Shown here: one piece after another, positions 1 through 21,960 of the stretch
How the letters are laid out: each line of letters starts with the position of its first letter
Position numbering within the stretch: the first letter of the stretch is position 1
From: a virus
Taxonomy: Duplodnaviria; Heunggongvirae; Uroviricota; Caudoviricetes
DNA length: 25,326 nt
Virus record (IMG/VR): IMGVR_UViG_2565956724_000002
Reading direction: 5' to 3' (one strand)
Notes under the pieces: model-generated
The model's input: the letters and a program-made list of their open reading frames with translations, nothing else
Databases searched by the model: none
What the model was told of the DNA's origin: nothing
Translations under genes and position numbers: made by a program

Positions 1-1149
<1,149 letters not shown>

Positions 1150-1159
1150 AGCGCCCCTA

Positions 1160-1187
1160 CAAAAAAGAAAAGCCACCAGCGGCGGCT
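1160..1187 (-). terminator. Putative intrinsic terminator downstream of ref
   Basis: On the minus strand a GCCGCC-GCU-GGUGGC hairpin is followed by a T-run (plus-strand A-run 1161-1170). Confidence 0.4.
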
Positions 1188-1337
1188 TAGCAATACAACT
1201 GAAGGTAGCGCCCGGTACTCAGACTGTGCCGTCCATGGAATATTTGAAAAGGGATCCATCCGTACCGGGCGTGTGATGATTCTGACTCAAGTCACTTGTC
1301 AGTTGTCAATCATTTAAGATTAAAAATAATATATTTA

Positions 1338-1898
1338 TTAGTGCATGATGTTTGCCATTTCATAGGCGTCAGCCAGCAACTCCATCTCTGACTTGTTCAA
1401 CAAGGTGAATTCTTTCTTGCCTCCTACCACGCCATCGGCATGAACAGGGACCAGCCAGGGGTATTTTTCTCTTACTTCAGCCGGTGCTGCATGCTGGTGG
1501 TGCCATCTGCAAAGGGGCAATTGCTTTTTGTGACAACCCGGCGCGGTACGACCGGAGATATGGTGCAGAGACACCTCTTCAGATATTACTCCATGCATGT
1601 AGCAGGCAATGCAGGGGAGAGTGCCAAGAGCATTGGCGATGGTCCGTTCCTCCGCCGTCGGTGTTCGCCCCTTCAAGCCACGAGATTTTATTTTTACCGC
1701 ACTTTTCCGCGTTTTGCTGGCTGGTGGGCGCTCTTTCTGTTTAGCGATACGGCGGTCGATAGAATCCCGCATTTTCTGATATTGCGATTCTCGCCAGGCG
1801 GGGTCAGCCAACTTTTCCCGTTGCCGAGCGATCGCTCGTTCTCTGGCTGCCTTCTGCCACTCGCGGCGCTGTTCAAGTTTTTGTTCGATTGTTTTCAT
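1338..1898 (-). CDS. ref: Ref, recombination enhancement function (HNH-type endonuclease), 186 aa
   Basis: From the internal Met, MKTIEQKLEQRREWQKAARERAIARQREKLADP... matches P1 Ref as I recall it. The HNH-like motif CRWHHQH is visible. The ORF track's N-terminal extension back to 1976 runs through a hairpin and is probably not translated. Confidence 0.88.
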   Translation of the reverse strand: MKTIEQKLEQRREWQKAARERAIARQREKLADPAWRESQYQKMRDSIDRRIAKQKERPPASKTRKSAVKIKSRGLKGRTPTAEERTIANALGTLPCIACYMHGVISEEVSLHHISGRTAPGCHKKQLPLCRWHHQHAAPAEVREKYPWLVPVHADGVVGGKKEFTLLNKSEMELLADAYEMANIMH

Positions 1899-1903
1899 AT
1901 GGC

Positions 1904-1929
1904 AAAAAAAAGGCGGCCTAATGGCCGCC
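1904..1929 (-). terminator. Hairpin plus T8 immediately 5' of the ref start codon (terminator or attenuator-like)
   Basis: Perfect stem GGCGGCC / GGCCGCC (1912-1918, 1923-1929) with loop TAAT. On the minus strand it is followed by eight T (plus-strand A8 at 1904-1911). Confidence 0.5.
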
Positions 1930-1996
1930 AATGATGTCAAGGAGTGAAGTAATGGCAACGTCTTCGTAGTTGACAAAAACTGCGGCTAAATTATAG

Positions 1997-2013
1997 CAAT
2001 CAATTAGAGCAAT
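1997..2013 (-). promoter_or_regulatory. C1 operator-like site upstream of ref (Op2-like)
   Basis: The reverse complement, ATTGCTCTAATTGATTG, matches the P1 C1 operator consensus ATTGCTCTAATAAATTT at 14 of 17 positions. Confidence 0.6.
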
Positions 2014-2145
2014 GGTAGATATTTTGTTTCTCGCGAATCACATTTTTTCACTTCAGTACCTGTGTGCTATACTCCTTCTTGATTGATTGGATGCGGAATA
2101 CAAACCCGCTCTTTTGTGCAGCCTGGCTCCTTGCCAGGCTTTTTT

Positions 2146-2457
2146 TTATTTCATCATGGAAGCTGTTAACGCTTTGGACCTTGCTGAACTGATTGAAAGG
2201 GCATTGTTTACCTTACCCAGGAGTTCGCCAAATTCCCCCATCACTCTAGTAAGCCCGCGCCGCGCTTCCTCCTCCGTTGCATTCATCACAAAATGTTCAG
2301 CACTCCGCATGCTTTTAACGGGGAACGCAACAGATATCGAGTCGATATCAGGCATCCTATCGCTCAACTTTACGGTGACAATGACAGATGGCGACAGAAT
2401 ATTAGTGCTTACAGACAGCACTACATATTTTCCGTCGATGTTGAAATCCTTTCTCAT
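2146..2457 (-). CDS. Hypothetical protein between cre and ref (cra-like by position)
   Basis: 103-aa minus-strand ORF, same strand as cre and ref. GGTGG sits just upstream of the ATG, and a C1 operator-like site lies at 2474-2490, immediately upstream. Confidence 0.5.
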   Translation of the reverse strand: MRKDFNIDGKYVVLSVSTNILSPSVIVTVKLSDRMPDIDSISVAFPVKSMRSAEHFVMNATEEEARRGLTRVMGEFGELLGKVNNALSISSARSKALTASMMK

Positions 2458-2473
2458 ATGCCACCATAAATAT

Positions 2474-2490
2474 CAAAGAATTAGAGCAAT
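2474..2490 (-). promoter_or_regulatory. C1 operator-like site between cre and the cra-like ORF
   Basis: The reverse complement, ATTGCTCTAATTCTTTG, matches the consensus through the core ATTGCTCTAAT (13 of 17). Confidence 0.5.
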
Positions 2491-2507
2491 CATTTACGCG
2501 TTAATGG

Positions 2508-3539
2508 CTAATTGCCATCTTCCAGCAGGCGCACCATTGCCCCTGTTTCACTATCCAGGTTACGGATATAGTTCATGACAATATTTACGTTGGTCCAGCC
2601 ACCAGCTTGCATGATCTCCGGTATTGAAACTCCGGCACGGGCCATATCTCGCGCGGCTCCGACACGGGCACTGTGTCCAGACCAGGCCAGGTACCTCTGT
2701 CCAGAGTCATCCTTAGCCCCGTAAATCAATCGGTGAGTTGCTTCAAAAATCCCTTCTAGGGCGCGAGTTGATAGCTGGCTGGTGGGTGATGGCGAGGCAA
2801 CACCATTTTTTCTGACCCGGCAAAACAGGTAGTTATTCGGATCATCAGCCACACCAGAGACAGAAATCCATCGCTCGACCAGTTTAGTTACCCCCAGGCT
2901 AAGTGCCTTCTCTACACCTGCGGTGCTAACCAGCGTTTTCGTTCTGCCAATATGGATTAACATTCTCCCACCGTCAGTACGTGAGATATCTTTAACCCTG
3001 ATCCTGGCAATTTCGGCTATACGTAACAGGGTGTTATAAGCAATCCCCAGAAATGCCAGATTACGTATATCCTGGCAGCGATCGCTATTTTCCATGAGTG
3101 AACGAACCTGGTCGAAATCAGTGCGTTCGAACGCTAGTGCCTGTTTTGCACGTTCACCGGCATCAACGTTTTCTTTTCGGATCCGCCGCATAACCAGTGA
3201 AACAGCATTGCTATCACTTGGTCGCGGCAGCCCGGACCGACGATGAAGCATGTTTAGCTGGCCCAAATGTTGCTGGATAGTTTTTACTGCCAGACCGCGC
3301 GCCTGAAGATATAGAAGATAATCGCGAACATCTTCAGGTTCTGCGGGAAACCATTTCCGGTTATTCAACTTGCACCATGCCGCCCACGACCGGCAAACGG
3401 ACAGAAGCATTTTCCAGGTATGCTCAGAAAACGCCTGGCGATCCCTGAACATGTCCATCAGGTTCTTGCGAACCTCATCACTCGTTGCATCGACCGGTAA
3501 TGCAGGCAAATTTTGGTGTACGGTCAGTAAATTGGACAT
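2508..3539 (-). CDS. cre: Cre site-specific tyrosine recombinase, 343 aa
   Basis: The translation MSNLLTVHQNLPALPVDATSDEVRKNLMDMFRDRQAFSEHTWKMLLSVCRSW... is essentially P1 Cre end to end. ATG confirmed at 3539-3537. Confidence 0.97.
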   Translation of the reverse strand: MSNLLTVHQNLPALPVDATSDEVRKNLMDMFRDRQAFSEHTWKMLLSVCRSWAAWCKLNNRKWFPAEPEDVRDYLLYLQARGLAVKTIQQHLGQLNMLHRRSGLPRPSDSNAVSLVMRRIRKENVDAGERAKQALAFERTDFDQVRSLMENSDRCQDIRNLAFLGIAYNTLLRIAEIARIRVKDISRTDGGRMLIHIGRTKTLVSTAGVEKALSLGVTKLVERWISVSGVADDPNNYLFCRVRKNGVASPSPTSQLSTRALEGIFEATHRLIYGAKDDSGQRYLAWSGHSARVGAARDMARAGVSIPEIMQAGGWTNVNIVMNYIRNLDSETGAMVRLLEDGN

Positions 3540-3546
3540 TTAACAC

Positions 3547-3768
3547 TCAGATAATGGTTTTAAGTAAAGTGTACAGGATCGGCTCTGCCTTTACCTGTTT
3601 ATGGTTCTCGTCATAGAAACGCCAGCGACCGCGCGTGCGTTCTATTTTCTCTTCACCGCGCGATAATGACAGTTGGCAACTATCACGATCAAACCCTTTT
3701 GCCCGCCAGTAACCACGGTTTTTCTCAAGCTCAAGATGAGTGGACACTTTAGCAGCTGAATATCCCAT
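3547..3768 (-). CDS. Small hypothetical ORF (73 aa) in the loxP-cre interval
   Basis: ATG preceded by GAGGTG at good spacing. No homology recognised, and it overlaps the expected cre promoter region. Confidence 0.25.
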   Translation of the reverse strand: MGYSAAKVSTHLELEKNRGYWRAKGFDRDSCQLSLSRGEEKIERTRGRWRFYDENHKQVKAEPILYTLLKTII

Positions 3769-3864
3769 TTTTCACCTCTGATTGATTGGTGGTGCTAAGT
3801 GCGCTACGCGAAATCTGGAGTACTAACACTGCCAACATTTCGCAGATTTTACGTAGCGCAACCT

Positions 3865-3939
3865 TGATCAAATGATCAAGTGATCACTATTTGACCTGAT
3901 AAGGTATTGAACTGTATGGATTTACAGGTGAATTGATCA
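3865..3939. promoter_or_regulatory. Cluster of four TGATCA (Dam GATC) hexamers upstream of cre
   Basis: TGATCA at 3865-3870, 3873-3878, 3881-3886 and 3934-3939. This is consistent with the described Dam-sensitive cre promoter region of P1. Confidence 0.6.
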
Positions 3940-3957
3940 TGTTCAATAACCCTTAAG

Positions 3958-3991
3958 ATAACTTCGTATAATGTATGCTATACGAAGTTAT
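3958..3991. other. loxP: loxP recombination site (34 bp)
   Basis: Exact ATAACTTCGTATA-ATGTATGC-TATACGAAGTTAT: two 13-bp inverted repeats around the 8-bp spacer. Confidence 0.98.
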
Positions 3992-4034
3992 CAGGTCAGA
4001 AGAGGAGTTTACGTCCAGCTGCGCACAAAAATCA

Positions 4035-4051
4035 AGAATTATTAGAGCAAT
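4035..4051 (-). promoter_or_regulatory. C1 operator-like site (Op99-like) in immC
   Basis: The reverse complement, ATTGCTCTAATAATTCT, matches the consensus at 15 of 17. Confidence 0.6.
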
Positions 4052-4111
4052 AAATTTTGAGAGAAAAATCCCACTCCACCAGCTAAAAACTGGATTGTTT
4101 TTCATAGTTGT

Positions 4112-4138
4112 TTGACAATTGCTCTAATAAATTATAGT
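4112..4138 (+). promoter_or_regulatory. Putative coi/c1 promoter with an overlapping C1 operator (Op99a-like)
   Basis: TTGACA at 4112-4117 directly abuts ATTGCTCTAATAAATTA (4118-4134, 16 of 17 to consensus), with TATAGT at 4133-4138 as a possible -10. Confidence 0.65.
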
Positions 4139-4372
4139 TTTGCCGCCGTTTCGTAATACGACTTTGGATTCACTATTTAATGTGTCTTCAGCGTTGTAGA
4201 GCGGCTCAGAAGGAAATGAGCAAACAGGGAAACCTTATACAACGGCATTACAGCTATGCATTGCTCATCTTACACACAGCGCAATGTTGTTAGATTACCC
4301 CAGCATGGATCATGGGTGAAACAGTAGGTCAGAGCTTCAGGCTCTGTGTTGTCAATACAGTGAGACATAATT

Positions 4373-4582
4373 ATGGCTTTCATTCAACCAACCATCGACG
4401 ACGTTAGACATTGCTCTAACGCTTTATCTGTAGACCCTGCCGAAACCGACGCTGCCCGCGCCATTGCTGAACACTACTCAAAGATATCCAATCAGGAGTA
4501 CCGCATCACCCAAGACGACCTGGATGACCTCACTGACACAATCGAATATCTCATGGCAACTAACCAGTTAGACTCACAATAA
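4373..4582 (+). CDS. coi: Coi, C1 inactivator, 69 aa
   Basis: 69-aa ORF directly upstream of c1, the length and position of P1 coi. Sequence MAFIQPTIDDVRHCSNALSVDPAETD... Confidence 0.85.
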   Translation: MAFIQPTIDDVRHCSNALSVDPAETDAARAIAEHYSKISNQEYRITQDDLDDLTDTIEYLMATNQLDSQ

Positions 4583-4692
4583 ATGCACTAATAAATCTAT
4601 TATTTTTGTTTGATCCCTCTATAATATAGGTCAGTAATGACCGGTTTTCTCAGCCGGGCGTTATTGACCATGTCAATTCTGGAGGAGGATCA

Positions 4693-5544
4693 ATGATAAA
4701 TTATGTCTACGGCGAACAACTGTACCAGGAGTTCGTCAGCTTCAGGGATCTCTTTCTAAAAAAAGCTGTTGCACGCGCCCAACACGTTGATACAGCCAGC
4801 GACGGTCGTCCTGTACGCCCGGTTGTCGTTCTACCGTTCAAAGAAACTGACAGCATTCAGGCTGAAATTGATAAATGGACTTTAATGGCGCGGGAACTGG
4901 AACAGTACCCAGACCTCAATATCCCAAAGACTATTTTATATCCAGTGCCTAACATCCTTCGCGGTGTGCGTAAGGTTACAACTTATCAGACAGAAGCTGT
5001 GAACAGCGTCAACATGACCGCTGGCCGCATTATTCATCTGATTGATAAGGACATTCGCATCCAAAAAAGCGCGGGGATCAATGAGCACAGTGCGAAATAC
5101 ATAGAGAACCTGGAAGCAACAAAAGAGCTAATGAAGCAGTACCCGGAGGATGAAAAATTCCGTATGCGCGTACACGGCTTTAGCGAAACAATGCTGCGCG
5201 TCCACTACATTTCCAGTAGCCCTAACTACAATGATGGTAAATCAGTTAGTTACCATGTGCCACTGTGTGGCGTGTTTATCTGCGATGAAACTCTCCGTGA
5301 TGGAATTATCATCAACGGTGAATTCGAAAAAGCAAAATTTAGCCTTTATGACTCCATAGAACCGATCATCTGCGACCGCTGGCCGCAAGCAAAAATATAT
5401 CGCCTGGCAGATATTGAAAATGTAAAAAAACAAATTGCCATCACTCGCGAAGAGAAAAAGGTTAAGTCAGCCGCATCAGTTACGCGCAGCCGTAAAACCA
5501 AGAAGGGGCAGCCAGTAAACGACAACCCCGAAAGCGCGCAATAA
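4693..5544 (+). CDS. c1: C1 repressor of lysis, 283 aa
   Basis: MINYVYGEQLYQEFVSFRDLFLKKAVARAQ... matches P1 C1 in sequence and length. Strong RBS GGAGGAGG upstream of the ATG at 4693. Confidence 0.95.
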   Translation: MINYVYGEQLYQEFVSFRDLFLKKAVARAQHVDTASDGRPVRPVVVLPFKETDSIQAEIDKWTLMARELEQYPDLNIPKTILYPVPNILRGVRKVTTYQTEAVNSVNMTAGRIIHLIDKDIRIQKSAGINEHSAKYIENLEATKELMKQYPEDEKFRMRVHGFSETMLRVHYISSSPNYNDGKSVSYHVPLCGVFICDETLRDGIIINGEFEKAKFSLYDSIEPIICDRWPQAKIYRLADIENVKKQIAITREEKKVKSAASVTRSRKTKKGQPVNDNPESAQ

Positions 5545-5549
5545 ATTAT

Positions 5550-5567
5550 GCCCGGCATCAACCGGGC
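5550..5567. terminator. Hairpin between the convergent c1 and antirepressor-like genes (possible bidirectional terminator)
   Basis: Stem GCCCGG / CCGGGC with loop CATCAA, flanked by moderately U-rich sequence on both strands. Confidence 0.45.
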
Positions 5568-5576
5568 ATTCTTCCA

Positions 5577-6695
5577 TTATTCAGCCGCCACCGGTTTTAA
5601 CAAGCCAGCATCGAGCAGTTTACGCGTCAACCACTGCTGGCCTTTACCCGTTAATTGAGGCGTCAACCGTATCTGGTAGCCATCTTCATCATCCAGCACC
5701 ACTTCTTTCACCGTGAAATACCCCGCGTTGATGTACTGCTGGAACGGCACATTTTTACGTCCACCGGACGCTATCAGGATGCCGTTCTCCCGTAACCAGA
5801 CAAACAGCGCGTTTTGCTTAAGTCCAACAACCTTTGCAAAATTCCCAATCAGGATCCCTTTAGCTACTGATACCCGGTCGGCAAAATCGACTTTAGGAGC
5901 GGCGGCCACCAGCTGCTGATTTAGCTGGTGGGCTTTCTGTTCCAGAAGTTGCTTTTGTTCAGCCAGTTCGGCAGCCAGGCGTAGGGCTTCAGGAAGCGTC
6001 TGGGGGATTGCGATCGGTTGCTGTTCTTTTTGTCGGAAGTAGCTGTCTTCCAGTTTTTCAAAGAATGCCCATGCCTGATCGGTTTCGAGCATTTTAGCGT
6101 GGCGGGCTGCGCCGCGTTCTGTCCAGAGGGTGAGTGAGCGAACATTGCGAGCAATTTTTACAGAGTAGTTTAAAGCTACTCTGTGCTTCAACTCGCGCAA
6201 TGATTCTCCTTCAACTTTGAAAAAGTGCTTCCCTTCAACAAAGCGTACTTTGTTCTCATGATGATTTTGGCGAATACGGATTGTTTCTGTCCCATACCCT
6301 CTAGCAAGAGTCTCGGTTGTCACTACACGCACTCCCTGCCATTCCAGAACGGGAATTTCATCAGACTGATTCTGAACAACCACCAGCTCCGATTCCTGAA
6401 CTGAAGGTGCATGAATTTTTTCTGATTTAACGTTAGTTGCTTTCATTCTGTGTGCCTCCTTGCGTGATTCGGCTGCGGCGGTTGCGTAATTCAGATGCCC
6501 CTGTTCGAGCAGGTATTCGCGGATATCAGACAGCAGGATGCGGTGAACTGCGTTCTTGTCCTTTCTCCGGTAAAGTTGTTTGGTGATCATGAAGTAGTTG
6601 GCAATAACGCCCGGTATATCCCTAGTACTGATACAGGCAGTGTGCTGTTCAATTGCCTCGATCATCTCTTCACGGGTAACTAATGACGTTCTCAT
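5577..6695 (-). CDS. Phage antirepressor-like protein (ORF6N/Bro-N-like central region, KilA-C-like C-terminus), 372 aa
   Basis: The central segment VLEWQGVRVVTTETLARGYGTETIRIRQNHHENKVRFVEGKHFFKVEGESL and the C-terminal segment ...LFVWLRENGILIASGGRKNVPFQQYINAGYFTVKEV... resemble these domain families from memory. The ATG overlaps the upstream ORF's stop (ATGA). Confidence 0.6.
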   Translation of the reverse strand: MRTSLVTREEMIEAIEQHTACISTRDIPGVIANYFMITKQLYRRKDKNAVHRILLSDIREYLLEQGHLNYATAAAESRKEAHRMKATNVKSEKIHAPSVQESELVVVQNQSDEIPVLEWQGVRVVTTETLARGYGTETIRIRQNHHENKVRFVEGKHFFKVEGESLRELKHRVALNYSVKIARNVRSLTLWTERGAARHAKMLETDQAWAFFEKLEDSYFRQKEQQPIAIPQTLPEALRLAAELAEQKQLLEQKAHQLNQQLVAAAPKVDFADRVSVAKGILIGNFAKVVGLKQNALFVWLRENGILIASGGRKNVPFQQYINAGYFTVKEVVLDDEDGYQIRLTPQLTGKGQQWLTRKLLDAGLLKPVAAE

Positions 6696-6913
6696 AGTCC
6701 CTCCTGAGCAGAAGCGTTAACAGGGAGGCACCAGTAACTGAGAGAATTGCGTGAATCAGTGGAAAAACGGGCAGAGAAAATACATGGGGCGTCAGGAAGC
6801 TGAGAATGGGCCTCATCTTCTGTCGGTGCAATAACGAAGTGATAGTGACGTTTTTGGCAGGAGTAAAAGCGCCAGATAAATTCAGGATGAATTGGGGTAG
6901 GGACAGTAGCCAT
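6692..6913 (-). CDS. Small hypothetical protein (73 aa), translationally coupled to the antirepressor-like gene
   Basis: AAAGGAGG lies about 8 nt upstream of the ATG at 6913. The stop overlaps the downstream start by 4 nt. Confidence 0.5.
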   Translation of the reverse strand: MATVPTPIHPEFIWRFYSCQKRHYHFVIAPTEDEAHSQLPDAPCIFSARFSTDSRNSLSYWCLPVNASAQEGL

Positions 6914-7098
6914 AATGGCAGCCTCCTTTGACTAAGTTAAGGAGCTACCGCGTGAGGTCTCAATCTCAATGGCGGTAGCACTGACTGGGTTGAGACTACC
7001 GGCGTCAAAGGGAACCGGCCTGCCTTTCGGCAGCCCAGCCAGCACTACCATTGATTTCGGAGCTAAACGCTACGTATGGCTGTGCGATGGCATGACAC

Positions 7099-7120
7099 AA
7101 AAAAAGACGCTTTCGGCGTC
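7099..7120 (-). terminator. Intrinsic terminator, minus strand (pacB 3' end and/or attenuator in the leader of the downstream operon)
   Basis: Stem GACGC / GCGTC (7106-7110, 7116-7120) with loop CGAAA on the minus strand, followed by U7 (plus-strand A7 at 7099-7105). Confidence 0.6.
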
Positions 7121-7244
7121 TGTGTCGCCTTTGACATTATCCGGGGTCTCAATCCCGGCACCCGTTTTAATGAGGTGCCTGATAAGCATAAACCGAAAAT
7201 GCCTCAAGGCGCAAGAGGTCAGGTTCAATGTAACATCGGCAGTC

Positions 7245-7261
7245 AAAAAACACAATTTATT
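7245..7261 (-). promoter_or_regulatory. C1 operator-like site just downstream of the pacB stop
   Basis: The reverse complement, CTTGCTCTAATAAATTG, matches the consensus at 15 of 17. Confidence 0.6.
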
Positions 7262-8463
7262 AGAGCAAGTGTTTATTCATTAAGCCATGCCAGAGCTTCA
7301 TCAACCTGCGCTTCGTCTTCGACGCTAAGCACTTCGTCCTGGGGAACATAATCCGCCAGCATAGCGAAACAATATGTATCCCAATGGTCTGGTGAGTGCA
7401 GGTTGAGTTTTTTCTTCATATCCTCCTTACTCATCACCTTCCATTGACCTGCGGAGTTAATCCCTACAGGGATTTTCGACGCTTCCTCAATAGTTTCATT
7501 ACCCTTATCCAGTCTCATACGACCAGATTTTACGGCCTCTGCGGCTTGAACGTTGGCATAAGCACGTTTATCAAAGTACAGGCTCTTATCTTCACGGCTA
7601 TGCATCTTTTTACCCCAGCGTATACGCTGTACGGTAATACCATAATACTCGTACATCAGATCCGCCGTTGCTTTACCCAGGCCATCGCCGTCTATCGCTA
7701 TGGTGATATTGGGGAATCGCTCAGGATTACATTCTGCGAAAATTTTGGCGGCAAGCTGCGTTTCTGTAACGTCTGTGTATTCCAGCATTCGATAGTTGAT
7801 TACACGGCGTTTATTTCGCTGGCCGGACACCATCATGATATTGATAAAGGACTTATCCCGTCCTGTACCACCAGCAACGTCCACACATGCAAGCCAGCCC
7901 CATCCTTTGGCAATCTTGACTTTCCGCCGCGTCGCACGTTCAACCTCATCACGTCCAAGAAGGAAGCCGTCCTGTAATTTAGGGAATAGGCCGCGTACCT
8001 TAATCATGTACATAGGGTTATCACGCCCGCCGTACTCCGCCAGCTTCATTTTGATAAATTCTGACGTTACCAGCGGTGATTCCTCACTGTTAAGCGTGAT
8101 CGCCGTATAAACGCCATCTGGGTTACCAGGACGCTTGGCCAGTTTATGGTGAGTATCGTAGAAATAGCCGCTTGGGCGTGTAGGCTGTGACAGTAATAAG
8201 ATGCGGTTATCCTGTCCGGTAAGAGCACCGGTGATGATACCGAAAGCTCTATCACTGACACCGGAGGCTTCATCGATAATATACAGAAGATGATCTGCGT
8301 GTTCACCGGCGAGAACTTCTTCACTTCCCAGACGAAAGCCCTTCGGTACTACAGTCCATACACCTTTACCAGTAGACTGGCCCCCTGAATCTCCAGACAA
8401 CCAGTATCACTTATTTAAGTGATAGTCTTAATACTAGTTTTTAGACTAGTCATTGGAGAGCAG

Positions 8464-8829
8464 ATGATTGATGTCTTAGGACCGGAGAAACGCAGACGGC
8501 GTACCACACAGGAAAAGATCGCAATTGTTCAGCAGAGTTTTGAACCGGGGATGACGGTCTCCCTCGTTGCCCGGCAACATGGTGTAGCAGCCAGCCAGTT
8601 ATTTCTCTGGCGTAAGCAATACCAGGAAGGAAGTCTTACTGCTGTCGCCGCCGGAGAACAGGTTGTTCCTGCCTCTGAACTTGCTGCCGCCATGAAGCAG
8701 ATTAAAGAACTCCAGCGCCTGCTCGGCAAGAAAACGATGGAAAATGAACTCCTCAAAGAAGCCGTTGAATATGGACGGGCAAAAAAGTGGATAGCGCACG
8801 CGCCCTTATTGCCCGGGGATGGGGAGTAA
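8464..8829 (+). CDS. insC: IS2 OrfA (InsC)
   Basis: [56 protein letters not shown]... Confidence 0.93.
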
Positions 8830-9692
8830 GCTTAGTCAGCCGTTGTCTCCGGGTGTCGCGTGCGCAGTTGCACGTCATTCTCAGACGAACCGATGACTGG
8901 ATGGATGGCCGCCGCAGTCGTCACACTGATGATACGGATGTGCTTCTCCGTATACACCATGTTATCGGAGAGCTGCCCACGTATGGTTATCGTCGGGTAT
9001 GGGCGCTGCTTCGCAGACAGGCAGAACTTGATGGTATGCCTGCGATCAATGCCAAACGTGTTTACCGGATCATGCGCCAGAATGCGCTGTTGCTTGAGCG
9101 AAAACCTGCTGTACCGCCATCGAAACGGGCACATACAGGCAGAGTGGCTGTGAAAGAAAGTAATCAGCGATGGTGCTCTGACGGGTTCGAGTTCCGCTGT
9201 GATAACGGAGAAAAACTGCGAGTCACGTTCGCGCTGGACTGCTGTGACCGTGAGGCACTGCACTGGGCGGTCACTACGGGCGGCTTCAACAGTGAAACAG
9301 TACAGGACGTCATGCTGGGAGCGGTGGAACGCCGCTTCGGCAACGAGCTTCCGGCGTCTCCAGTAGAGTGGCTGACGGATAATGGTTCATGCTACCGGGC
9401 TAATGAAACACGGCAGTTTGCCCGGATGTTGGGGCTTGAACCGAAGAGCACGGCGGTGCGGAGTCCGGAGAGTAACGGCATAGCAGAGAGCTTCGTGAAA
9501 ACGATAAAGCGTGACTACATCAGTGTCATGCCCAAACCAGACGGGTTAACGGCAGCAAAGAACCTTGCAGAGGCGTTCGAGCATTATAACGAATGGCATC
9601 CGCATAGTGCACTGGGTTATCGCTCGCCACGGGAATATCTACGGCAGCAAGCCAGTAATGGGTTAAGTGATAACAGGTGTCTGGAAATATAG
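8787..9692 (+). CDS. insD: IS2 OrfB (InsD) transposase
   Basis: [34 protein letters not shown]... contains a DDE-type integrase core and overlaps insC in the usual IS3-family arrangement. Confidence 0.93.
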
Positions 9693-10092
9693 GGGCAAAT
9701 CCAACCAGTAACCTCATAGAAAGCGGTTTCTGTCAGAACAAAATAATCAGCAAGCCATGGAAAACGGCTGGTGGCAGTAGCCCAGTTTATCTTGATGTAC
9801 TTGAATATACCGGTCATTACCTGCTGAATTTTGTTCGCAACGATAATGGCGCGGGCACCGGGATACATGATTATGAACAACATGATCATGATAGAAGTCA
9901 TGTCTGATTTCCCGGTACCGTGACCAGACGAAACAGATGTCTTGCTACCCTGTTCCTGCACAGACTCAATAATCAGATCCTGCTGCCAGGTAGGTGTTTT
10001 GCCGAACAAAACATCAGCGGCCGCAATCCAGTCATAACGATATAGCGCCACCAGCTCGCGCCAACGTGGATCCGTTACGCAACTTCTGGCCA

Positions 10093-10694
10093 TTAATCAT
10101 CATCCCCGTATAGCTTGCGGGTAACTTCTTCGTCTTCCTCCTCGTCTTCGTCCAGGTCTTGTTCCAGCCATGGGTCGTTTGATACACCTTCAGTATCAAC
10201 ATCTCCATAACCGCCTGTATCAACGATATCGGCGATTTCTTCCCTACGCTGCTCAATCCACAATGCGGCATCGGCGCGGCGGTTGGCGGCCCGTTCTCGC
10301 GCAACTTTGTCCAGATCTTCAAGAGAAGGGCCACCGACGGCTGTTTGCCTTTCCTCATCATCGGTATTGGTCTTAGGAGCACGCAGATCGGCTTTGATTT
10401 GCTCCAGCATCAGGGGCGGCACTTTCCCGCCATGCGCCTCGATGAATTCAGCTGCTTCCAGCACTGACCAGTTATTTTCACGCTTTCGTTCGTACTGTCA
10501 TCAATCAAAACAGACGAATACTTAGACACAGCGATAGCTTTTAAGCGCAGATAAACATCGCGCTTATCGACATCCAGATGCGGGTATTCCTTTTCAAGAA
10601 TTGCTGCGAGTTCTTTCGCTGATAGAAGAGATTTAGTGCGGATCATGTAATTCGCAATCTCGTACGATGTTATTCGTGAGTGATTTATTTCCAT
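10093..10694 (-). pseudogene. Small terminase-like gene immediately upstream of pacB, split across two frames (frameshift)
   Basis: One ORF (ATG at 10694, stop at 10410) has an HTH-like N-terminal part; a second, in another frame (open from 10497 to the stop at 10093), has an acidic tail DEDEEEDEE. They overlap by about 90 nt, and the final stop overlaps the pacB ATG (TAATG). Confidence 0.4.
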
Positions 10695-10794
10695 GAAGTG
10701 GCGTCCCTGCCAGTTAAGTAACATCCTGTCACCTACTGATTAGCCCATGTCAACTAATCAACGTGGAATATAATACCATCGATTAAAGAAATAG

Positions 10795-10811
10795 CAATAC
10801 ATTAGAGCAAT
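10795..10811 (-). promoter_or_regulatory. C1 operator-like site upstream of the small terminase-like gene
   Basis: The reverse complement, ATTGCTCTAATGTATTG, has the core ATTGCTCTAAT (14 of 17). Confidence 0.4.
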
Positions 10812-10812
10812 T

Positions 10813-11856
10813 TTATCTAACGCTCGACGAGTAACTTGTGATAGCGCCGACTCCAAGCGCGTAATCAAAGAACAATCGTTGATGCATCGCCAGCCTACCG
10901 TGCGTCTTCTCCCAATTATCGCGGTCACGCTCAATATCACGCTGGCATGACTGGCACAGAGGAATTGCGTAAATGTCATGCGCGCATAATCGACTATGAC
11001 GAACGATATAAGGCGTAATGTGAGCGCCAGCTCCCGCAGCTCCACAGCCACAGCATGGACGGGAAGCCACAAAGTCCATGTACTCGGGCAATTTTAGCGA
11101 TTGAAGTTTTGGTATTTTGAAATGCGCCATACCTGGGTCGGAGTCAACATCCACAGGGCATACTTTTGCACGCATCGGCGCGGCGCGTTCTTCCATCATC
11201 TGAACATATGCTGTAGCGCGATCGTCATACGGGCGAATATCCGCCTCTTTCAGAGGTCCGCTATCCTGCGGAGCAGCCTTCATCTTATTTATTGATATGC
11301 GGCAGACTTCTTCCGGCATCAGGTGCATCATGTTACGCATGAAAGCCCACCAGCACAGCTCCTGAATACTTAAATCATGGCTATCTGAAAGGCCCATTTC
11401 CTGACGGGCGACATCCAGTATCCAGTTAACGCGATTATTGTGCAGCGTTTCTTTCAGCTCATTAAAACCACGCATCCGGTAATGGTTATCGTGATGCCAG
11501 CACAACAACACCGCGCTATTGTCTCGTTCAGCGTGGACAATATGGTTGTCACACCAGCTACGATCTGCGGCCTGGCATTGCCCCTCTTTCCTGCGCAACC
11601 ACGCCACCAGCGCGTCAATTCCACCAATACGGCGAAACAGTTCATCGCTGTTAAAAAACGGCTGCAACGCCTCATTTGTTGCTATAGTTTGCTCGGAAGC
11701 AACGAGGCCGTCGTCCATGTGCTCGATTAACTCACGCGGCACCGGCTCCATAATAAATTTACGGCCAGCCTCCACCAGCTTTCTGACCTCCTGATCCACT
11801 TTGAACGTGGCGAGGCCAAGTTCTTTCTGTACAAAGGGAGTAATTACGGCTTTCAC
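10813..11856 (-). CDS. Cys/His-rich hypothetical protein (347 aa) with HNH-like motifs, upstream of the terminase genes
   Basis: GTG start with RBS AAAGGTG. Motifs [22 protein letters not shown] and CCGCG...HSRLCAHD...PLCQSC. It is not P1 PacA as I recall it, and no TGATCA pac-type cluster lies in this region. Confidence 0.45.
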
Positions 11857-11883
11857 ATCACACCTTTAATCACTGATTGGGCT

Positions 11884-12063
11884 TTATATGCTGCCCGGCA
11901 TTCTCTGTTTAAGCACAACCATTTCCTGACGGCATAACACAGCAATAGCGGTCCTGGCACCAATTTGCTTACCAGCCAGGTATTGCTTTACCTCGCGGCG
12001 ACTCACGCCATCAAGAAGCATCTTTAACGCTTCACGGGACAATTTGTTGTATTTGCGTGCCAT
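11884..12063 (-). CDS. Small hypothetical protein downstream of doc (pdc-like by position)
   Basis: 59 aa from the ATG at 12063 (MARKYNKLSREALKMLLDGVSRREVKQYLAGKQ...), directly after the doc stop. Confidence 0.4.
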   Translation of the reverse strand: MARKYNKLSREALKMLLDGVSRREVKQYLAGKQIGARTAIAVLCRQEMVVLKQRMPGSI

Positions 12064-12067
12064 TAAT

Positions 12068-12448
12068 CTACTCCGCAGAACCATACAATCTACGTAACGT
12101 GTCGGCGACAGAAGATACAGATATCTCTCCGGTCGCAGCCCCTACGGTAAGGTCTGCCAGTTCAGGTGAATCAAATACCTGCACCCCGTTACGGCGTAGA
12201 AATAACAGCGCACTGTTTAGCGCGGTACGCTTATTGGCATCATTGAATATATGCCCTCTCGCTGTAGCCACCAGGTAGGTGGCGGAGACTTCGAAAAGGT
12301 CGGTGATCTCTTCGTAGGCAACTCTGGCCTGAACTCTCCCGATAATGGCCTCTGCCCTACCCGGATCTGACATTCCCGGCAGGCCGCCGTAGCGGTTTAT
12401 ATTCGCATCATGAAGCGCAATAAGTTCTTCCGGTGATATATGCCTCAT
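12068..12448 (-). CDS. doc: Doc toxin (Fic-fold kinase) of the phd-doc addiction module, 126 aa
   Basis: [43 protein letters not shown]... matches P1 Doc nearly exactly. Confidence 0.95.
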
Positions 12449-12669
12449 TATCGGTTAACCAGTTCCTTGTTGGTGGAGTCCAGGGTGTCAAACAGGGATG
12501 CAAATTCAGCATCCAGCGCCGCTTTTTTGTAGGCTTCGAAAGTAGCCTTGCTGACAATTACTGCTGGCTCACGGCCTCTGCGGGTGATTTCAACCTCTTC
12601 CCCGGCCTCAACATTGTTGAGCACTTCAGAAAGGTTGCCGCGCGCGGTACGGAAGTTAATGGATTGCAT
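12448..12669 (-). CDS. phd: Phd antitoxin, 73 aa
   Basis: [49 protein letters not shown]... matches P1 Phd. Its stop overlaps the doc start. Confidence 0.95.
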
Positions 12670-12710
12670 AAATACCTCGTGTACTCGTTATGTGTACACA
12701 ATTATAAACT
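12670..12710 (-). promoter_or_regulatory. phd-doc promoter/operator region with a GTGTACAC palindrome
   Basis: Palindrome TGTGTACACA at 12691-12700 and a GTGTAC half-site at 12679-12684, immediately upstream of phd. Confidence 0.5.
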
Positions 12711-12845
12711 TCACAGGCATAAAGCACCAGCACTTTGCGGCTTAACAAACCTCTAGGCAGGTCATTCGTAGCCTAATGTCCGAACTGCTAAAGCATCCAA
12801 GTTGCTGTAGAATCACCGCCAATTACATAAGCCTGAAATAAGTGG

Positions 12846-13463
12846 ATGAAAATGACAAGTATTCAACAACGTGCAGAGCTTCATCGTCAAATCTGGCAAA
12901 TTGCTAACGATGTCAGGGGTTCGGTCGATGGATGGGATTTTAAGCAATACGTTCTGGGCGCACTTTTCTACCGTTTTATCAGCGAAAATTTTTCCAGCTA
13001 TATTGAAGCCGGTGATGACAGCATCTGTTATGCGAAACTGGATGACAGCGTAATTACTGATGACATTAAAGACGATGCCATCAAAACTAAAGGCTACTTC
13101 ATCTACCCCAGTCAGCTTTTCTGCAACGTAGCGGCGAAAGCAAATACCAATGACAGACTGAATGCAGATTTAAACAGCATCTTCGTTGCTATCGAAAGTT
13201 CTGCTTACGGTTATCCTTCAGAAGCTGACATCAAAGGTTTGTTTGCTGATTTCGATACCACCAGTAACCGCCTGGGTAACACCGTTAAAGATAAAAATGC
13301 CCGCCTGGCTGCGGTTCTGAAAGGGGTTGAAGGGTTAAAACTTGGTGACTTCAACGAACATCAGATTGACCTGTTCGGTGATGCCTATGAGTTCCTGATT
13401 TCTAACTATGCGGCAAATGCCGGTAAGTCAGGCGGTGAGTTCTTTACACCGCAGCACGTCTCC
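12846..13463 (+). pseudogene. hsdM: Type I restriction-modification methyltransferase HsdM, N-terminal fragment only (type IC / EcoR124-like by recollection), cut off by IS1
   Basis: [44 protein letters not shown]... ending ...[16 protein letters not shown], which reaches the HsdM FxTP motif. The ORF then runs straight into the IS1 terminus at 13464. Confidence 0.7.
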
Positions 13464-13518
13464 GGTGATGTTGCCAACTTACTGATTTAGTGTATGATGG
13501 TGTTTTTGAGGTGCTCCA

Positions 13519-13794
13519 GTGGCTTCTGTTTCTATCAGCTGTCCCTCCTGTTCAGCTACTGACGGGGTGGTGCGTAACGGCAAAAGCACTGCCGGACATC
13601 AGCGCTATCTCTGCTCTCACTGCCGTAAAACATGGCAACTGCAGTTCACTTACACCGCTTCTCAACCCGGTACGCACCAGAAAATCATTGATATGGCCAT
13701 GAATGGCGTTGGATGCCGGGCAACCGCCCGCATTATGGGCGTTGGCCTCAACACGATTTTACGTCACTTAAAAAACTCAGGCCGCAGTCGGTAA
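13519..13794 (+). CDS. insA: IS1 InsA
   Basis: [43 protein letters not shown]... Confidence 0.93.
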
Positions 13795-14216
13795 CCTCGC
13801 GCATACAGCCGGGCAGTGACGTCATCGTCTGCGCGGAAATGGACGAACAGTGGGGCTATGTCGGGGCTAAATCGCGCCAGCGCTGGCTGTTTTACGCGTA
13901 TGACAGGCTCCGGAAGACGGTTGTTGCGCACGTATTCGGTGAACGCACTATGGCGACGCTGGGGCATCTTATGAGCCTGCTGTCACCCTTTGACGTGGTG
14001 ATATGGATGACGGATGGCTGGCCGCTGTATGAATCCCGCCTGAAGGGAAAGCTGCACGTAATCAGCAAGCGATATACGCAGCGAATTGAGCGGCATAACC
14101 TGAATCTGAGGCAGCACCTGGCACGGCTGGGACGGAAGTCGCTGTCGTTCTCAAAATCGGTGGAGCTGCATGACAAAGTCATCGGGCATTATCTGAACAT
14201 AAAACACTATCAATAA
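13713..14216 (+). CDS. insB: IS1 InsB reading frame (expressed as an InsAB' fusion by frameshifting)
   Basis: ...[65 protein letters not shown]... Confidence 0.9.
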
Positions 14217-15424
14217 GTTGGAGTCATTACCCGAATGATGGTTGCCCATACATCAAAGGACTGGTTAACCGGCAGAGCGATGTCAAAGGTGTCGGTCGCA
14301 AGAGTACGCCAGATCATGATGCGAAGACGCAGCATATCCTGTTCATGAGACAGGTATTCCTTCAGGGTGCGGAACTGTAGGGAACCCAGGTCCAGACCAA
14401 ATTCACGCTGTGCTTCATACGCCGCCTGTACCGTGTGCTCAGCCGCGATAACGAACTGGCTTGGGAACAGGGTGTATTTCTTCATTTCGTGGTTGATCAG
14501 CGGGATCAGCTCAGGAGCGGCTTCAATATTGATTTCCGTCTCAATTGCGATCTCAGTGCCTTTATCCGGCGCTTTGGAGAACGACAGGGAAATCTGACCA
14601 ATGTTGTAGTTCAGAGAGCAGGTAACAGTGATTTGCTCACCAGCAGCATTAGTAAACGAGTGAAGTAGGCTGCCGGAACCGTTATCAACAACAGACTTAA
14701 TACGGTTAACGTAGATGTTAGTGCGACCTTTTCGGATTGGTACATTCTGGCCTTCGAAGTCTTCCATCTTGAAGGTTGCGGTTTTGCTGGTGCCATCGGA
14801 GCTTGCCACCAGCACATAGCGGCGGCGTAACTGGCTGTACACACCGACGGATTGCATGTCCAGAACATCACCAGCAGCATAAGAACCAAAAGAGGAACCT
14901 GCCACGTTAAAGACTTCATAGATGTCGGACTGGTCACGCGTAACCGGAATGAAGGTACACGCATCAGCGGTAGCTGCCCCCAACTGAACAGGCAGGATCA
15001 TCGCGAGGAATAAAGGCAGACGCATAACACCGTCAGAAACGCTCATCATCTCTGCTGCGACGGATTCCAGCATCGCTTTATTAGTGGCATCCATGCTATT
15101 GCGGGTGGACTCAATCAGGCAGTTTTCCAGCGTCTGGTGGCAGGAGGCCAGAATTTCCGGACGCGGCATAGATTTATGTGCTGCGGCGTAGTCAGCCAGT
15201 GCACTTGCCCACGCGGTAGCAATTTGAGCGGTGGCATTATCAGAGATACCCGCAAAAATTGGGTCTTTACGTGCAGCTTCAAGGATAGATGCGGCACGCG
15301 CGGCATCATCTTTGATGAATTGGTTATCAGTACCGAACTGTGCTGTACTTGCCCAGCCAAGAACGGCTTTAGAGCGTTTTGCGATATCTGCAATACGATT
15401 CTGGTATTCGCGTAAGTTACTCAA
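14210..15424 (-). pseudogene. Capsid-like structural protein gene (P1 gene 23-like by position next to par), with its 3' end lost at the IS1 junction
   Basis: Probable TTG start at 15424 with RBS AAGGAAG. The last ~6 codons and the stop lie inside the IS1 terminus. The identity is inferred from position and composition only. Confidence 0.35.
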
Positions 15425-15679: not shown

Positions 15680-16645
15680 TTATTCCCCAGCAGACATTTT
15701 CCCAATGATTTTTTTTATTGCTTCGTCAATTTCAGTTTGCACTTCAGACGGGAGTCTGGAGAACTCGTAGGCGACAACCCGTTTTTTCGGATCGGACTTC
15801 TTTCGAGCATATTGGCGACGGTCAGAGAAGTCTCGCAGCTTCTCAACCACCACAGATTTAACCGGCGCGGGCTTCAGGCTTTTGCTTTCCGCTTTGAAGA
15901 TAGCCAGTATCTTCGCTTTATCCTCTTTCGCGCCCTCAGTCTCTGCAATTCGTTCGCGCACCGTATCAACCAGCTCTTCAATAGGCACGCTTTTAGCGTT
16001 GGCATCCTCGGAGATCTGGAGCAGTAACTGGTAATCTGGCAGGGCGAGATCGCTGGCAACAGGGAAGACAGCAATCATCTCATCCGGCACCGCTGCCGCC
16101 TGGAACGCGCGCGTAACTTTAGCCTTTGAAATGTTCTCAGCGCGGGCGATCTCTTCTTTGGTCATGCTCTTACCATACATAACCTCGAAGCGTTTACCCA
16201 GTTCGCGCAGGGTGTGTTCGCGGGCTGTCTGGATATCAATGGCCAGCTGGCGTGCATCCGCCAGGCTGATCTCATCTTTCGTCACCAGAATCTCAAATTT
16301 CGTTTCATTGAAGATACACGCAGCGCGGCGACGTGATCCGTCCAATACCTCAATGCGCTCCCCAACCATACGACCGATAGCCGGGAAGAACTGTTGCAAT
16401 TTAATGGTGCGGGAAATATCGCTTACCGACTCAGGGGTGAGCAGAGACTGATCGCGGCCGTTAACTGCCGGGTCAACGAACGTGCGCGACTCAATCTCAC
16501 CACTCAGCACAACGGTAAGCAAAAATTTAGCCTGGCGGCCAGATTTTAGGGTAAAGGTTTTGGTGCCTTCACTGCCTTCAAGCATGCGAGCAAACTCGGA
16601 GCTATTCTTGCCCAGCACTCGTCCACGGGAAACTATTTTTTTCAT
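15680..16645 (-). CDS. parB: ParB partition protein (P1/P7 family, divergent from P1)
   Basis: Conserved ...RTFVDPAVNGRDQSLLTP...QQFFPAIG...ILDGSRRRAA..., immediately downstream of parA and overlapping it by 4 nt. Confidence 0.85.
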   Translation of the reverse strand: MKKIVSRGRVLGKNSSEFARMLEGSEGTKTFTLKSGRQAKFLLTVVLSGEIESRTFVDPAVNGRDQSLLTPESVSDISRTIKLQQFFPAIGRMVGERIEVLDGSRRRAACIFNETKFEILVTKDEISLADARQLAIDIQTAREHTLRELGKRFEVMYGKSMTKEEIARAENISKAKVTRAFQAAAVPDEMIAVFPVASDLALPDYQLLLQISEDANAKSVPIEELVDTVRERIAETEGAKEDKAKILAIFKAESKSLKPAPVKSVVVEKLRDFSDRRQYARKKSDPKKRVVAYEFSRLPSEVQTEIDEAIKKIIGKMSAGE

Positions 16646-17853
16646 GCCGCCTCACCCCTAACAAACTCAATTCGATCAAACACAGCCTTAGTGAAACGCT
16701 CGGCCTCGGTTCGTGCCTTCTTCAGCGCCTCTGCACTGCCTGGATACGATTGCGGGTTGGCACTGATTACGGTGTCGAAAGACTCGCCGCATCGCTCAAA
16801 TCCATCCAGACGAGGCAGAGAAGAGTCCAGAATGTTGCTGGCGTAAACCTCACGCGCAAGGCTGTGTGATGTCTCGTGATCGCGCTTGCCGGTCATCTTC
16901 GACATAAAACCAATGCTGGCGCTTAAACGCGGTTCTACGCCTTCCTCCTCCAGTTGCTCCAGCATTTCTGGCAGACGGGTGAGATATTTCAGTGTTGAGT
17001 GGAAGTCAACCTGGGCTGGTGGGGTAGGGGTAAGCAGCAAATCGCTGGCCGCCAGACCGTTGAGCAGGAACGGATCCAGGTGTGGACCGGTATCAATAAA
17101 GATAAAGTCATAATCATCCGCAACACGATCAATGATATTGCGTCGAAGGATTTCGTACTGATTTTGTCCGGGAAGATGCTCTTCAACCAGCTCTTTCCAT
17201 TGGCTGGCAACAAAGCCATCGTCGATAGAGGCTGGAATCACGTCTACGCCAGGAACGATGGTCGGACGAATCACCTCTTTGCGTAGCGTCTCCGCGTCCA
17301 AGTCGTTCAGCATCGCCTGCGCGGCGGTTTCCAGGATGGAACCAATACTGTGAGTATGGTCGAGGAACATTGTGCTGGATGCCTGAGGGTCAAGGTCAAT
17401 TACCAGAATGCGCAGATCGTGACGCAGTAAATCCTGATGCACACGCAGAGCGTGCGCCAACGTGACTGTGGAAACCGTTTTGGATACGCCACCCTTCAGG
17501 TTTACGACAAAAATAACGTAAGGCGATTTGTGAATGTCGCGATATTTTGGGATCTTACGGTGGGCATAGATATCAATGACGTTCTGGATGGTCAGCGCGT
17601 ACTGTTCAACGTTACCGACCTGTTTCTTGTTGAACTGGTACCCATCATCTTCCATCTCTTTGATGGCCTGCTCCACAATGCGGCGGCTCAGCTTCGGCAA
17701 CTTTGCCACAGCGTTACGAGTGAACGTCTGATAATACTCGGTCTGATTGAACTCTTTGCGCTGATCTTCAATATCCTGACTCATGGCCTTAAGTAATGCG
17801 CTTGCACGAAGAGCTATGGTGCCGACACCGCCGTAATCGCGTTTCATCATCAT
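16642..17853 (-). CDS. parA: ParA partition ATPase (type Ia, with N-terminal HTH extension)
   Basis: Walker A VVNLKGGVSKTVSTVTLAH, and the C-terminal ...LPRLDGFERCGESFDTVISANP...KAVFDRIEF is almost as in P1 ParA. The N-terminus differs from P1. Confidence 0.9.
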   Translation of the reverse strand: MMMKRDYGGVGTIALRASALLKAMSQDIEDQRKEFNQTEYYQTFTRNAVAKLPKLSRRIVEQAIKEMEDDGYQFNKKQVGNVEQYALTIQNVIDIYAHRKIPKYRDIHKSPYVIFVVNLKGGVSKTVSTVTLAHALRVHQDLLRHDLRILVIDLDPQASSTMFLDHTHSIGSILETAAQAMLNDLDAETLRKEVIRPTIVPGVDVIPASIDDGFVASQWKELVEEHLPGQNQYEILRRNIIDRVADDYDFIFIDTGPHLDPFLLNGLAASDLLLTPTPPAQVDFHSTLKYLTRLPEMLEQLEEEGVEPRLSASIGFMSKMTGKRDHETSHSLAREVYASNILDSSLPRLDGFERCGESFDTVISANPQSYPGSAEALKKARTEAERFTKAVFDRIEFVRGEAA

Positions 17854-21183: not shown

Positions 21184-21567
21184 ATGCGCGCTAAAGAAAG
21201 ACTTCCCCGGAAACACTATTCCCCTGAATTCAAAATGGAACTGGTCAGGCTGGCTCTTGAAGAAGAAGGCAGTATTGCCGCACTGGCCCGGAAACATGAC
21301 GTCAATGATAACCTGCTCTTTAAATGGATAAGGCTCTGGCAGCGTGAAGGGCGGGTCTGTCGGCCCCGAAAAAACTCATCGTCGCTTCCTGCCCTGATAC
21401 CCGTGCAGCTTCAGGCGGGCTCTTCTCTCCCAACCTTCGAACTACCATCCTGCTCTCCTCCCGCTACCTGCCACATAAAATGTCGGGGAGGAGAAATAAC
21501 ACTGACTCATCCCTCTGCTGAACTCATGAGCACTGTCCTGCGCGAACTGATGCGGGGGCCGGTATGA
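21184..21567 (+). CDS. tnpA: IS66-family accessory protein TnpA (orf1)
   Basis: First ORF of the IS66-type triplet; HTH-like N-terminus. Confidence 0.75.
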   Translation: MRAKERLPRKHYSPEFKMELVRLALEEEGSIAALARKHDVNDNLLFKWIRLWQREGRVCRPRKNSSSLPALIPVQLQAGSSLPTFELPSCSPPATCHIKCRGGEITLTHPSAELMSTVLRELMRGPV

Positions 21568-21911: not shown

Positions 21912-21960
21912 CGCTCTTTATCCTGGTTGTCGCAGAATAAGCCTGGTAAAATACAGGCTT

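Follow-up and report, generated by a model that had tools for sequence, protein, structure and literature searches.

The 25,326-nt stretch of viral DNA analyzed here (IMG/VR record IMGVR_UViG_2565956724_000002, Caudoviricetes; in the following termed the window) represents, with a probability of about 90%, part of a P1-like plasmid prophage of the RCS47/SJ46 type that no longer completes a phage life cycle and is kept in plasmid form. This reading builds on two lesions within the packaging region, i.e., an insertion of the insertion sequence (IS) element IS2 into pacB and a 1,097-bp deletion reaching from lpa into pacA. Both lesions are inherited as one allele, pacB::IS2 plus Δ(lpa-pacA), which is present in many Escherichia coli and some Salmonella assemblies. 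The allele resides within a visibly decaying element and does not represent a fresh strike on a working prophage.

The element found in pacB is an IS2 of full length, bordered by a perfect target duplication of 5 bp (Table 1), as had been stated in an original prediction that was made from the letters of the window. At one given junction, a perfect 5-bp direct repeat is expected by chance with a probability of 1/1024. The left inverted-repeat end (IRL) of IS2 adjoins the 3′ fragment of pacB and the right end (IRR) its 5′ fragment. Compared with IS2A of E. coli K-12 MG1655, 1300 of 1331 positions are identical, the remainder being 31 substitutions without any indel. The termini (TAGACTGG... and ...GCAAATCCA) match those of K-12 IS2A; the element starts with TAGACTGGCCCCC and ends with GGGGCAAATCCA, and its terminal inverted repeats are imperfect (arms 8382-8413 and 9664-9695, 78% complementary). 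Transposase families of the PHROG database match the window's IS2, and the domains PF00665 (rve) and PF13683 are assigned to the identical gene in relatives. In elements of the IS2/IS3 type the heptamer AAAAAAG serves as the -1 frameshift site yielding the OrfAB transposase. As far as can be read from the sequence, all coding and end regions of the element are intact and nothing distinguishes it functionally from the K-12 copy. It is a common variant, labelled only “IS3 family transposase” in RefSeq and 99.6-99.8% identical to many chromosomal copies. An outward IS2 promoter driving the pacB 3′ fragment was considered but is not favored: IS2 lies in opposite orientation with IRL facing the fragment, and a promoter scan did not exceed the shuffled expectation.

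PacB is the large terminase subunit; as an ATPase-nuclease, it cleaves pac and drives the DNA into phage heads. To reconstruct its gene, positions 8373-9708 were excised in silico. The fusion of 10093..9709 to 8372..7273 resulted in a 1485-nt open reading frame (ORF) of 494 codons with a terminal stop only, so that the predicted protein of ~495 residues could be reconstructed, its exact length being 494 residues. In a tblastn search against 50,697 phage records, residues 1-494 of this protein aligned free of gaps, with 99.0% identity to phage vB_EcoM-673R5, 98.8% to PacB of RCS47, phiW39, and SJ46, 88.1% to PacB of P1 and P7 (494/494 residues in the case of P1), and 56% to D6. The proposed check by excision and alignment to P1 PacB thus came out in favor of a clean insertion into the terminase large-subunit gene. 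On nucleotide level, the reconstructed gene is 99.9% identical (nt 11-1485) to intact alleles on other plasmids, and no decay is detectable in the sequence of pacB itself. The two fragments had been described as lying in the same frame. This applies after excision, as is the case for a clean insertion, but not in raw coordinates, where IS2 plus one repeat amount to 1336 nt (1 mod 3). Together with the ACCAG at 9704-9708, the 5′ fragment encodes PacB residues 1-130. Both pieces are extended by the element into longer ORFs, a 158-aa ORF (9617-10093) running 28 codons into IS2 and a 375-aa ORF (7273-8400) beginning at a TTG within the IS2 left end.

The claim that the fragments together span both Walker motifs is in line with two motif-like strings found by inspection, the roles of their residues being inferred: the 5′ fragment contains a Walker A-like GHGTGKS at residues 57-63, the 3′ fragment a Walker B-like LLYIIDEA at residues 157-164. 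PacB codons 129-130, where IS2 is inserted, lie between the two strings. The PHROG family phrog_2, annotated as “terminase large subunit”, matches residues 33-474 of the reconstructed PacB (E = 4e-38). Neither the reconstructed PacB nor the PacA remnant was assigned to a family in a Pfam scan, and a sequence search of PDB chains with PacB returned nothing meaningful, i.e., no relative of solved structure. As a consequence, the terminase assignment is based on homology within the P1 family and on the PHROG profile. In the window, pacB is not an uninterrupted gene accompanied by its PacA partner and pac site: it is split by IS2, and pacA codons 1-264 are deleted along with pac.

This second lesion was delimited by pairwise BLAST. 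The absent stretch corresponds to P1 90224-91320 and to locus positions 4503-5599 of RCS47, and its loss removed lpa nt 234-453 and pacA nt 1-792 together with LPpac and pac. In the annotation of P1, the stretch comprises or crosses the 3′ 220 nt of lpa, LPpac (90475-90493), an IHF site, the pac cleavage positions (90784-90813), and pacA from its start at 90529 through codon 264. RCS47 shows the gene order pdcB, lpa (453 nt), pacA (1194 nt), and pacB; in the window only 720 nt are left between pdcB and the pacB start at 10093. Hexamers of the pac type (TGATC[AG]) form clusters at pacA nt 194-233 and 324-380 in RCS47, and none is left within the 720-nt remnant of the window. Across the junction, a 104-aa ORF (10410-10724) has formed, consisting of Lpa residues 1-78 followed by 26 out-of-frame codons into the pacA remnant. 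An IS2-mediated adjacent deletion was rejected as cause of the lpa-pacA loss, considering that the junction is located ~790 bp upstream of the IS2 insertion and displays a plain 3-bp microhomology.

As a side observation, three PHROG families of “unknown function” have the lengths of ORFs from the broken genes: phrog_20197 (158) that of ORF 9617-10093, phrog_26110 (104) that of ORF 10410-10724, and phrog_23417 (105) that of ORF 10093-10410. The latter two match their ORFs end to end, and the first 134 positions of phrog_20197 are matched by the reconstructed PacB. All three families appear to have been built from pseudogene fragments of this allele.

Table 1. Positions of the features discussed in the text, in coordinates of the window; the four entries on relatives give the DNA they have lost in the same coordinates.
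Feature	Position	Strand	Remarks
pacB 3′ fragment	7273-8372	-	PacB residues 129-494 and stop; Walker B-like string, predicted nuclease half
Target-site duplication ACCAG, left copy	8368-8372		sequence read and scripted excision
IS2	8373-9703	+	1331 bp; 97.7% identity to K-12 IS2A; orientation opposite to pacB
IS2 orfA (InsC-type)	8464-8829	+	121 aa, intact
Slippery site AAAAAAG (A6G)	8781-8787	+	IS2 nt 409
IS2 orfB (InsD-type, rve/DDE domain)	8787-9692	+	301 aa, intact
Internal TA of IS2	8998-8999		IS2 nt 626-627; context CGTCGGG-TA-TGGGCGC; intact in the window
Target-site duplication ACCAG, right copy	9704-9708		sequence read and scripted excision
pacB 5′ fragment	9709-10093	-	start codon 10093-10091; Walker A-like string at residues 57-63
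pacA remnant	10093-10491	-	PacA codons 265-397 and stop; 1-nt overlap of stop and pacB start, like in P1
Junction of the 1,097-bp deletion	10492-10494		3-bp microhomology TAC on gene strand
lpa remnant	10495-10724	-	Lpa residues 1-78 of 150
pdcB (DUF968)	10813-11856	-	intact; upstream neighbor as in P1 and RCS47
Loss in NCTC assembly GCA_900449965.1	9000-10244		outer end 10245
Loss in metagenome scaffold ERZ28665698	~9004-10356		outer end 10357
Loss in plasmid CP086387.1	9000-10551		outer end 10552
Loss in metagenome scaffold ERZ28585866	8093-8997		opposite direction; outer end 8092
IS5/ISKpn26-type element fragment	1-649		window begins inside the element
C4 antisense RNA	6968-7055	-	75 bits; just downstream of pacB
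isrK-like small RNA	7100-7178	-	60 bits; just downstream of pacB
IS1	13464-14231		truncates hsdM (12846-13490) at ~residue 212 of 518
IS66-family transposase	21961-23496		511 aa; NF033517, 467 bits

Both lesions were traced through complete genomes, plasmids, and draft assemblies. Over positions 6900-11000, the window shares 100% identity with plasmid A of E. coli H15 (NZ_CP010179.1, IncY, 116 kb) and 99% with a plasmid of the O15:H12 strain 2273-PO3 (NZ_CP061751.1), which came from sheep sampled in the USA. MOB-suite types the closest complete record, an IncY plasmid, as mobilizable. Among 5,426 complete E. coli genomes, IS2 together with its 300-bp flanks was fully covered in three, namely H15, 2273-PO3, and p22AR0118B (human urine, New Zealand); the deletion junction (291-bp query) was fully covered in the same three, out of 632 carrying the region. 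In PLSDB, only the H15 and 2273-PO3 plasmids among 645 records possess this junction. The ORFs created by the lesions served as further markers: 155 contigs are on record for the PacB 1-130 protein with its IS2-encoded tail (158 aa), 410 for the Lpa′ fusion (104 aa), and 201 for the IS2-initiated PacB 129-494 (375 aa), with E. coli, Salmonella enterica, and “MULTISPECIES Enterobacteriaceae” as source names. Such unequal counts are what short-read contigs breaking within IS2 would produce. For each of the three marker proteins ten places were inspected, and ~50 contigs were read in all. The deletion was present in 30 of 30 inspected places, as was IS2 or a further deleted or rearranged remnant of it, and neither an intact pacB nor an intact pacA was encountered in any of the 30. 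A search for plasmids with only the deletion or only IS2 in PLSDB, the complete E. coli genomes, and the marker contigs found none. In these data, both lesions always occur together.

This distribution bears on two other explanations of the locus. A recent, strain-specific hop of IS2 into an otherwise functional P1-like prophage would account for the complete element with its perfect duplication and for a pacB that, after excision, is free of stops and frameshifts and 99.9% identical to intact alleles. It would leave nothing else wrong with the prophage, however, while the window lacks 1,097 bp of lpa, LPpac, pac, and pacA ~790 bp away, shares the identical allele with three complete plasmids (USA, New Zealand, and elsewhere) and hundreds of contigs, shows turnover of the IS2 sequence at the same site, and carries further insertion sequences. 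This scenario is already refuted by the deletion that the members have in common and by how the allele is distributed. Of the original statement that the insertion was recent and single with little later decay, the part on pacB itself holds, as no decay is seen there. The remainder of the statement is not supported, in view of the presence of the same insertion plus deletion in three complete plasmids, in all of the ~50 contigs read, and on 155-410 contigs including Salmonella, of the lpa-pacA deletion, of the partial overwriting of IS2 in members of the lineage, and of the IS1, IS66-family, and IS5-type elements in the window. A placement of IS2 in pacB by repeat mis-assembly or scaffolding is conceivable for an element that is multi-copy in E. 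coli (median of three places per genome). Yet, the same junctions and the perfect duplication recur in independent complete plasmids (long-read or hybrid), draft genomes, and metagenome scaffolds, rendering an artefact the most improbable of all explanations considered.

The IS2 copies at this site are not uniform among the members. Over window positions 6900-11900, including 3.7 kb of flanks, the H15 plasmid shows 0, p22AR0118B 6, and 2273-PO3 39 differences from the window. Apart from position 10776, all differences in the latter two are located inside IS2, so that the flanks differ by 0-1 nt. Within IS2, they cluster in two tracts (8523-9167 and 9269-9533), and five are common to p22AR0118B and 2273-PO3. 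The copy of 2273-PO3 is 38 nt apart from that of the window and 61 nt from that of K-12, with the same ends and the same ACCAG. Given identical flanks around a mosaic IS2, this pattern is best explained by gene conversion by other IS2 copies of the host, with independent insertions fitting much worse. The latter would require a hot spot at which different IS2 variants inserted independently into the same ACCAG, as opposed to one ancestral event followed by gene conversion. Copies differing by up to 38 of 1331 nt would be in line with a hot spot, and pacB is indeed a repeated target: plasmid pRHB14-C22_4 (CP057799.1) carries another IS2 (4586-5916) in pacB, at a site equivalent to window 9816-9820 and 112 bp nearer to the start. 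That copy has the same orientation, a duplication ATTAC, and a sequence 2 nt from the K-12 copy, and both lpa and pacA are intact on this plasmid; the different site and duplication show that pacB was struck by IS2 at least twice independently. At the ACCAG site, however, all members share position, orientation, duplication, and the 1,097-bp deletion junction within flanks 0-1 nt apart over 3.7 kb, and the differences lie in tracts partly common to members, as in conversion patches. We regard a hot spot as highly unlikely and retain one ancestral insertion with subsequent gene conversion as the preferred explanation. Further insertions were observed in individual relatives. In GCA_009497625.2, an IS256-family (Transposase_mut) element occupies positions 1583-2895 within the pacB 5′ fragment, corresponding to window 9996-10005 with a flank overlap of ~10 bp, and in GCA_964042235.1 an IS5-type element is situated within the IS2 left end.

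Taken together, the RCS47/SJ46-type element presents the following picture. A standard IS2 insertion has split pacB at codons 129-130 and, in either order, a microhomology deletion of 1,097 bp has left only the N-terminal half of Lpa and eliminated pac, two-thirds of pacA, and the late promoter of their operon. In relatives, the IS2 copy has been partly replaced by other variants, struck by other insertion sequences, and become the start point of more deletions. Lpa (gp10) is the activator required at all P1 late promoters, and packaging in P1 requires PacA plus pac. Because Lpa activates all late promoters, either lesion alone should abolish virion production, and the lesion in lpa should also abolish late-gene-dependent lysis. 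The element would then be unable to kill its host by completing induction, and the loss of late functions may have removed the cost of lethal induction. With late genes and packaging not expressible, survival would be possible only as a plasmid, probably by means of repA, parA/parB, phd-doc, and c1 immunity.

Some considerations weigh against this proposal. Non-inducibility is predicted from gene structure, and the window represents only 25 kb of the plasmid, with the structural genes out of view. The 158-aa and 375-aa ORFs of the PacB fragments are still open and could be expressed, although no evidence of a function was found. Moreover, a spread across several species without packaging needs another route, the candidates being mobilisation, helper transduction, and recombination of the allele into other P1-like plasmids.

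Comparison of the relatives also pointed to a recurrent breakpoint inside IS2. Four relatives of the lineage have lost DNA beside or inside the element, and one end of the loss always coincides with the internal TA at 8998-8999 while the other end varies (Table 1). The TA is kept at every junction, and the partner sites of the four P1-lineage junctions exhibit a microhomology of TA or ATACC. Scans for patterns in which IS2 stops at this TA, with a sampling that was not systematic, retrieved the breakpoint in unrelated contexts as well. One IMG/VR contig has IS2 nt 1-627 fused to a phage ORF of the DUF6645 type, and in a metagenome contig the same part of IS2 lies beside the interior of an IS66-family element (a call made by eye from the flank); IS2 nt 626-1331 border DNA of prophage or chromosomal origin in E. 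coli ECDA1023 and ECGI0523 as well as in two IMG/VR contigs. In total, this amounts to seven independent junctions at TA 626-627, four of them in the plasmid lineage and three in unrelated prophage, chromosome, or metagenome contexts. Equivalent scans of the same database at four control positions of IS2 found no such junctions. The database holds at least 120 IS2 copies with the TA site intact, and the other truncation ends in those 120 loci are dispersed, most of them occurring once. On the bottom strand, the sequence immediately within the right half of IS2 is TGTCTGCGAAGCAGCGCCCATA-3′; it has the TGTCTG box in common with the end-binding region of IS2, but at a position 4-5 nt closer to the tip.

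We tentatively assign to the internal TA the role of a cryptic end for the transposase or of a fragile site, at which one-sided deletions may start in either direction with the TA always being kept; we judge the odds for this to be somewhat less than even. If it holds, the pacB::IS2 lineage may constitute a natural series of an IS2 eroding its own neighborhood, a joint claim that we put forward with the same reserve. The underlying process may involve such a cryptic end, the collapse of a replication fork at a nick, or some other site-specific activity. Three further possibilities were considered and found no support. A nested element inserted at the TA is disfavored by the lack of extra DNA at any junction, transposition of a 706-bp half-element by the lack of a target duplication around the right half in ECDA1023 and ECGI0523, and recombination with another IS3-family member by partner sequences that are unrelated to each other. 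A literature search on truncated or partial IS2 found nothing relevant, and a BLAST search of IS2 against the phage collection returned few partial copies, too few to be informative. The recurrent breakpoint is a lead rather than a result; if real, it would bear on how IS3-family elements make adjacent deletions.

The remainder of the window is consistent in part with a maintained plasmid and displays additional rearrangements. Present are the maintenance and immunity genes repA, parA/parB, phd-doc, and c1, with C1 matching NF041318 (611 bits) and ParA and ParB matching their families; the phd-doc and repA/par regions show a 97% match to P1/P7. A second immunity module, c4-icd-ant (5577-7178), lies between pacB and c1 and comprises icd/ash-like small ORFs and an intact Ant of 372 aa. 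In the H15-type sub-lineage, ant is frameshifted and this region differs from the window by ~86 positions. IS1 joins hsdM directly to the P1 partition and replication region (parB 15680-16645, parA 16642-17853). As relatives possess a full hsdMSR, this arrangement points to an IS1-mediated deletion or inversion at hsdM. Scaffold KI538793.1 of GCA_000495075.1 matches window 5617-14100, the IS1 junction included, with 100% identity, and no record in PLSDB or among the complete E. coli genomes has this junction. The IS66-family element extends over ~21000-23600, with further ORFs at 21184-21567 and 21564-21911, and is inserted within the rep/par-side segment of P1. At the opposite end of the window, the IS5-type piece abuts position 4254 directly in relatives, so that the window has another arrangement of the cre-side segment (650-4253).

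Knockouts of prophage genes by IS elements are routine, and the discovery value of the present case is small. Annotation pipelines apply the label “hypothetical protein” to both pieces of pacB, to the Lpa′ fusion, and to what is left of PacA. The combination of pacB::IS2 and Δ(lpa-pacA) nevertheless provides a handy marker of one P1-derived plasmid lineage that is widespread in E. coli and Salmonella and predicted to be non-inducible, and is thereby relevant to judging whether a P1-like plasmid can spread its cargo genes as a phage.

On every count the window belongs to kinds that are already known, i.e., IS2, PacB, and a defective P1-derived plasmid. Its IS element, a member of the IS2 group of the IS3 family, resembles IS2A of K-12 in the length of 1331 bp, orfA of 121 aa, orfB of 301 aa, the A6G site at nt 409, and the 5-bp duplication, and differs from it by the 31 substitutions mentioned above. 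IS2 is reportedly a major spontaneous mutagen of P1, as attributed to Sengstag and Arber (1983). After excision, PacB resembles its counterparts of P1, RCS47, SJ46, and phiW39 in the length of 494 aa and in the one-base overlap of its gene with the pacA stop. It also has the same neighbors as in P1-like phages, with pdcB-lpa-pacA upstream and c4/icd/ant-c1 downstream. In contrast to P1-type pacB, the gene is interrupted at codons 129-130, with the partner pacA and pac largely deleted. Compared with a functional P1-like phage-plasmid (Punavirus), the window has the maintenance and immunity modules but is devoid of an intact Lpa. The conversion of P1-like phage-plasmids to plain plasmids by gene loss has been published (PMC10879196), and the P1-type backbones described there likewise kept replication, partition, and addiction genes, lost phage functions, and accumulated insertion sequences. 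That study scores loss by the absence of gene families, whereas here a defined IS insertion and a defined small deletion were followed as one allele. Another insertion of IS2 was described for the P1-like plasmid pSvP1, where it disrupts sit and is flanked by the duplication ACCAA (PMC6906374). This case shares the element, the 5-bp length of the duplication, a similar A/C-rich target, and the P1-like backbone with the window; it differs in affecting sit on a single described plasmid, while the allele of the window affects pacB and is widespread.

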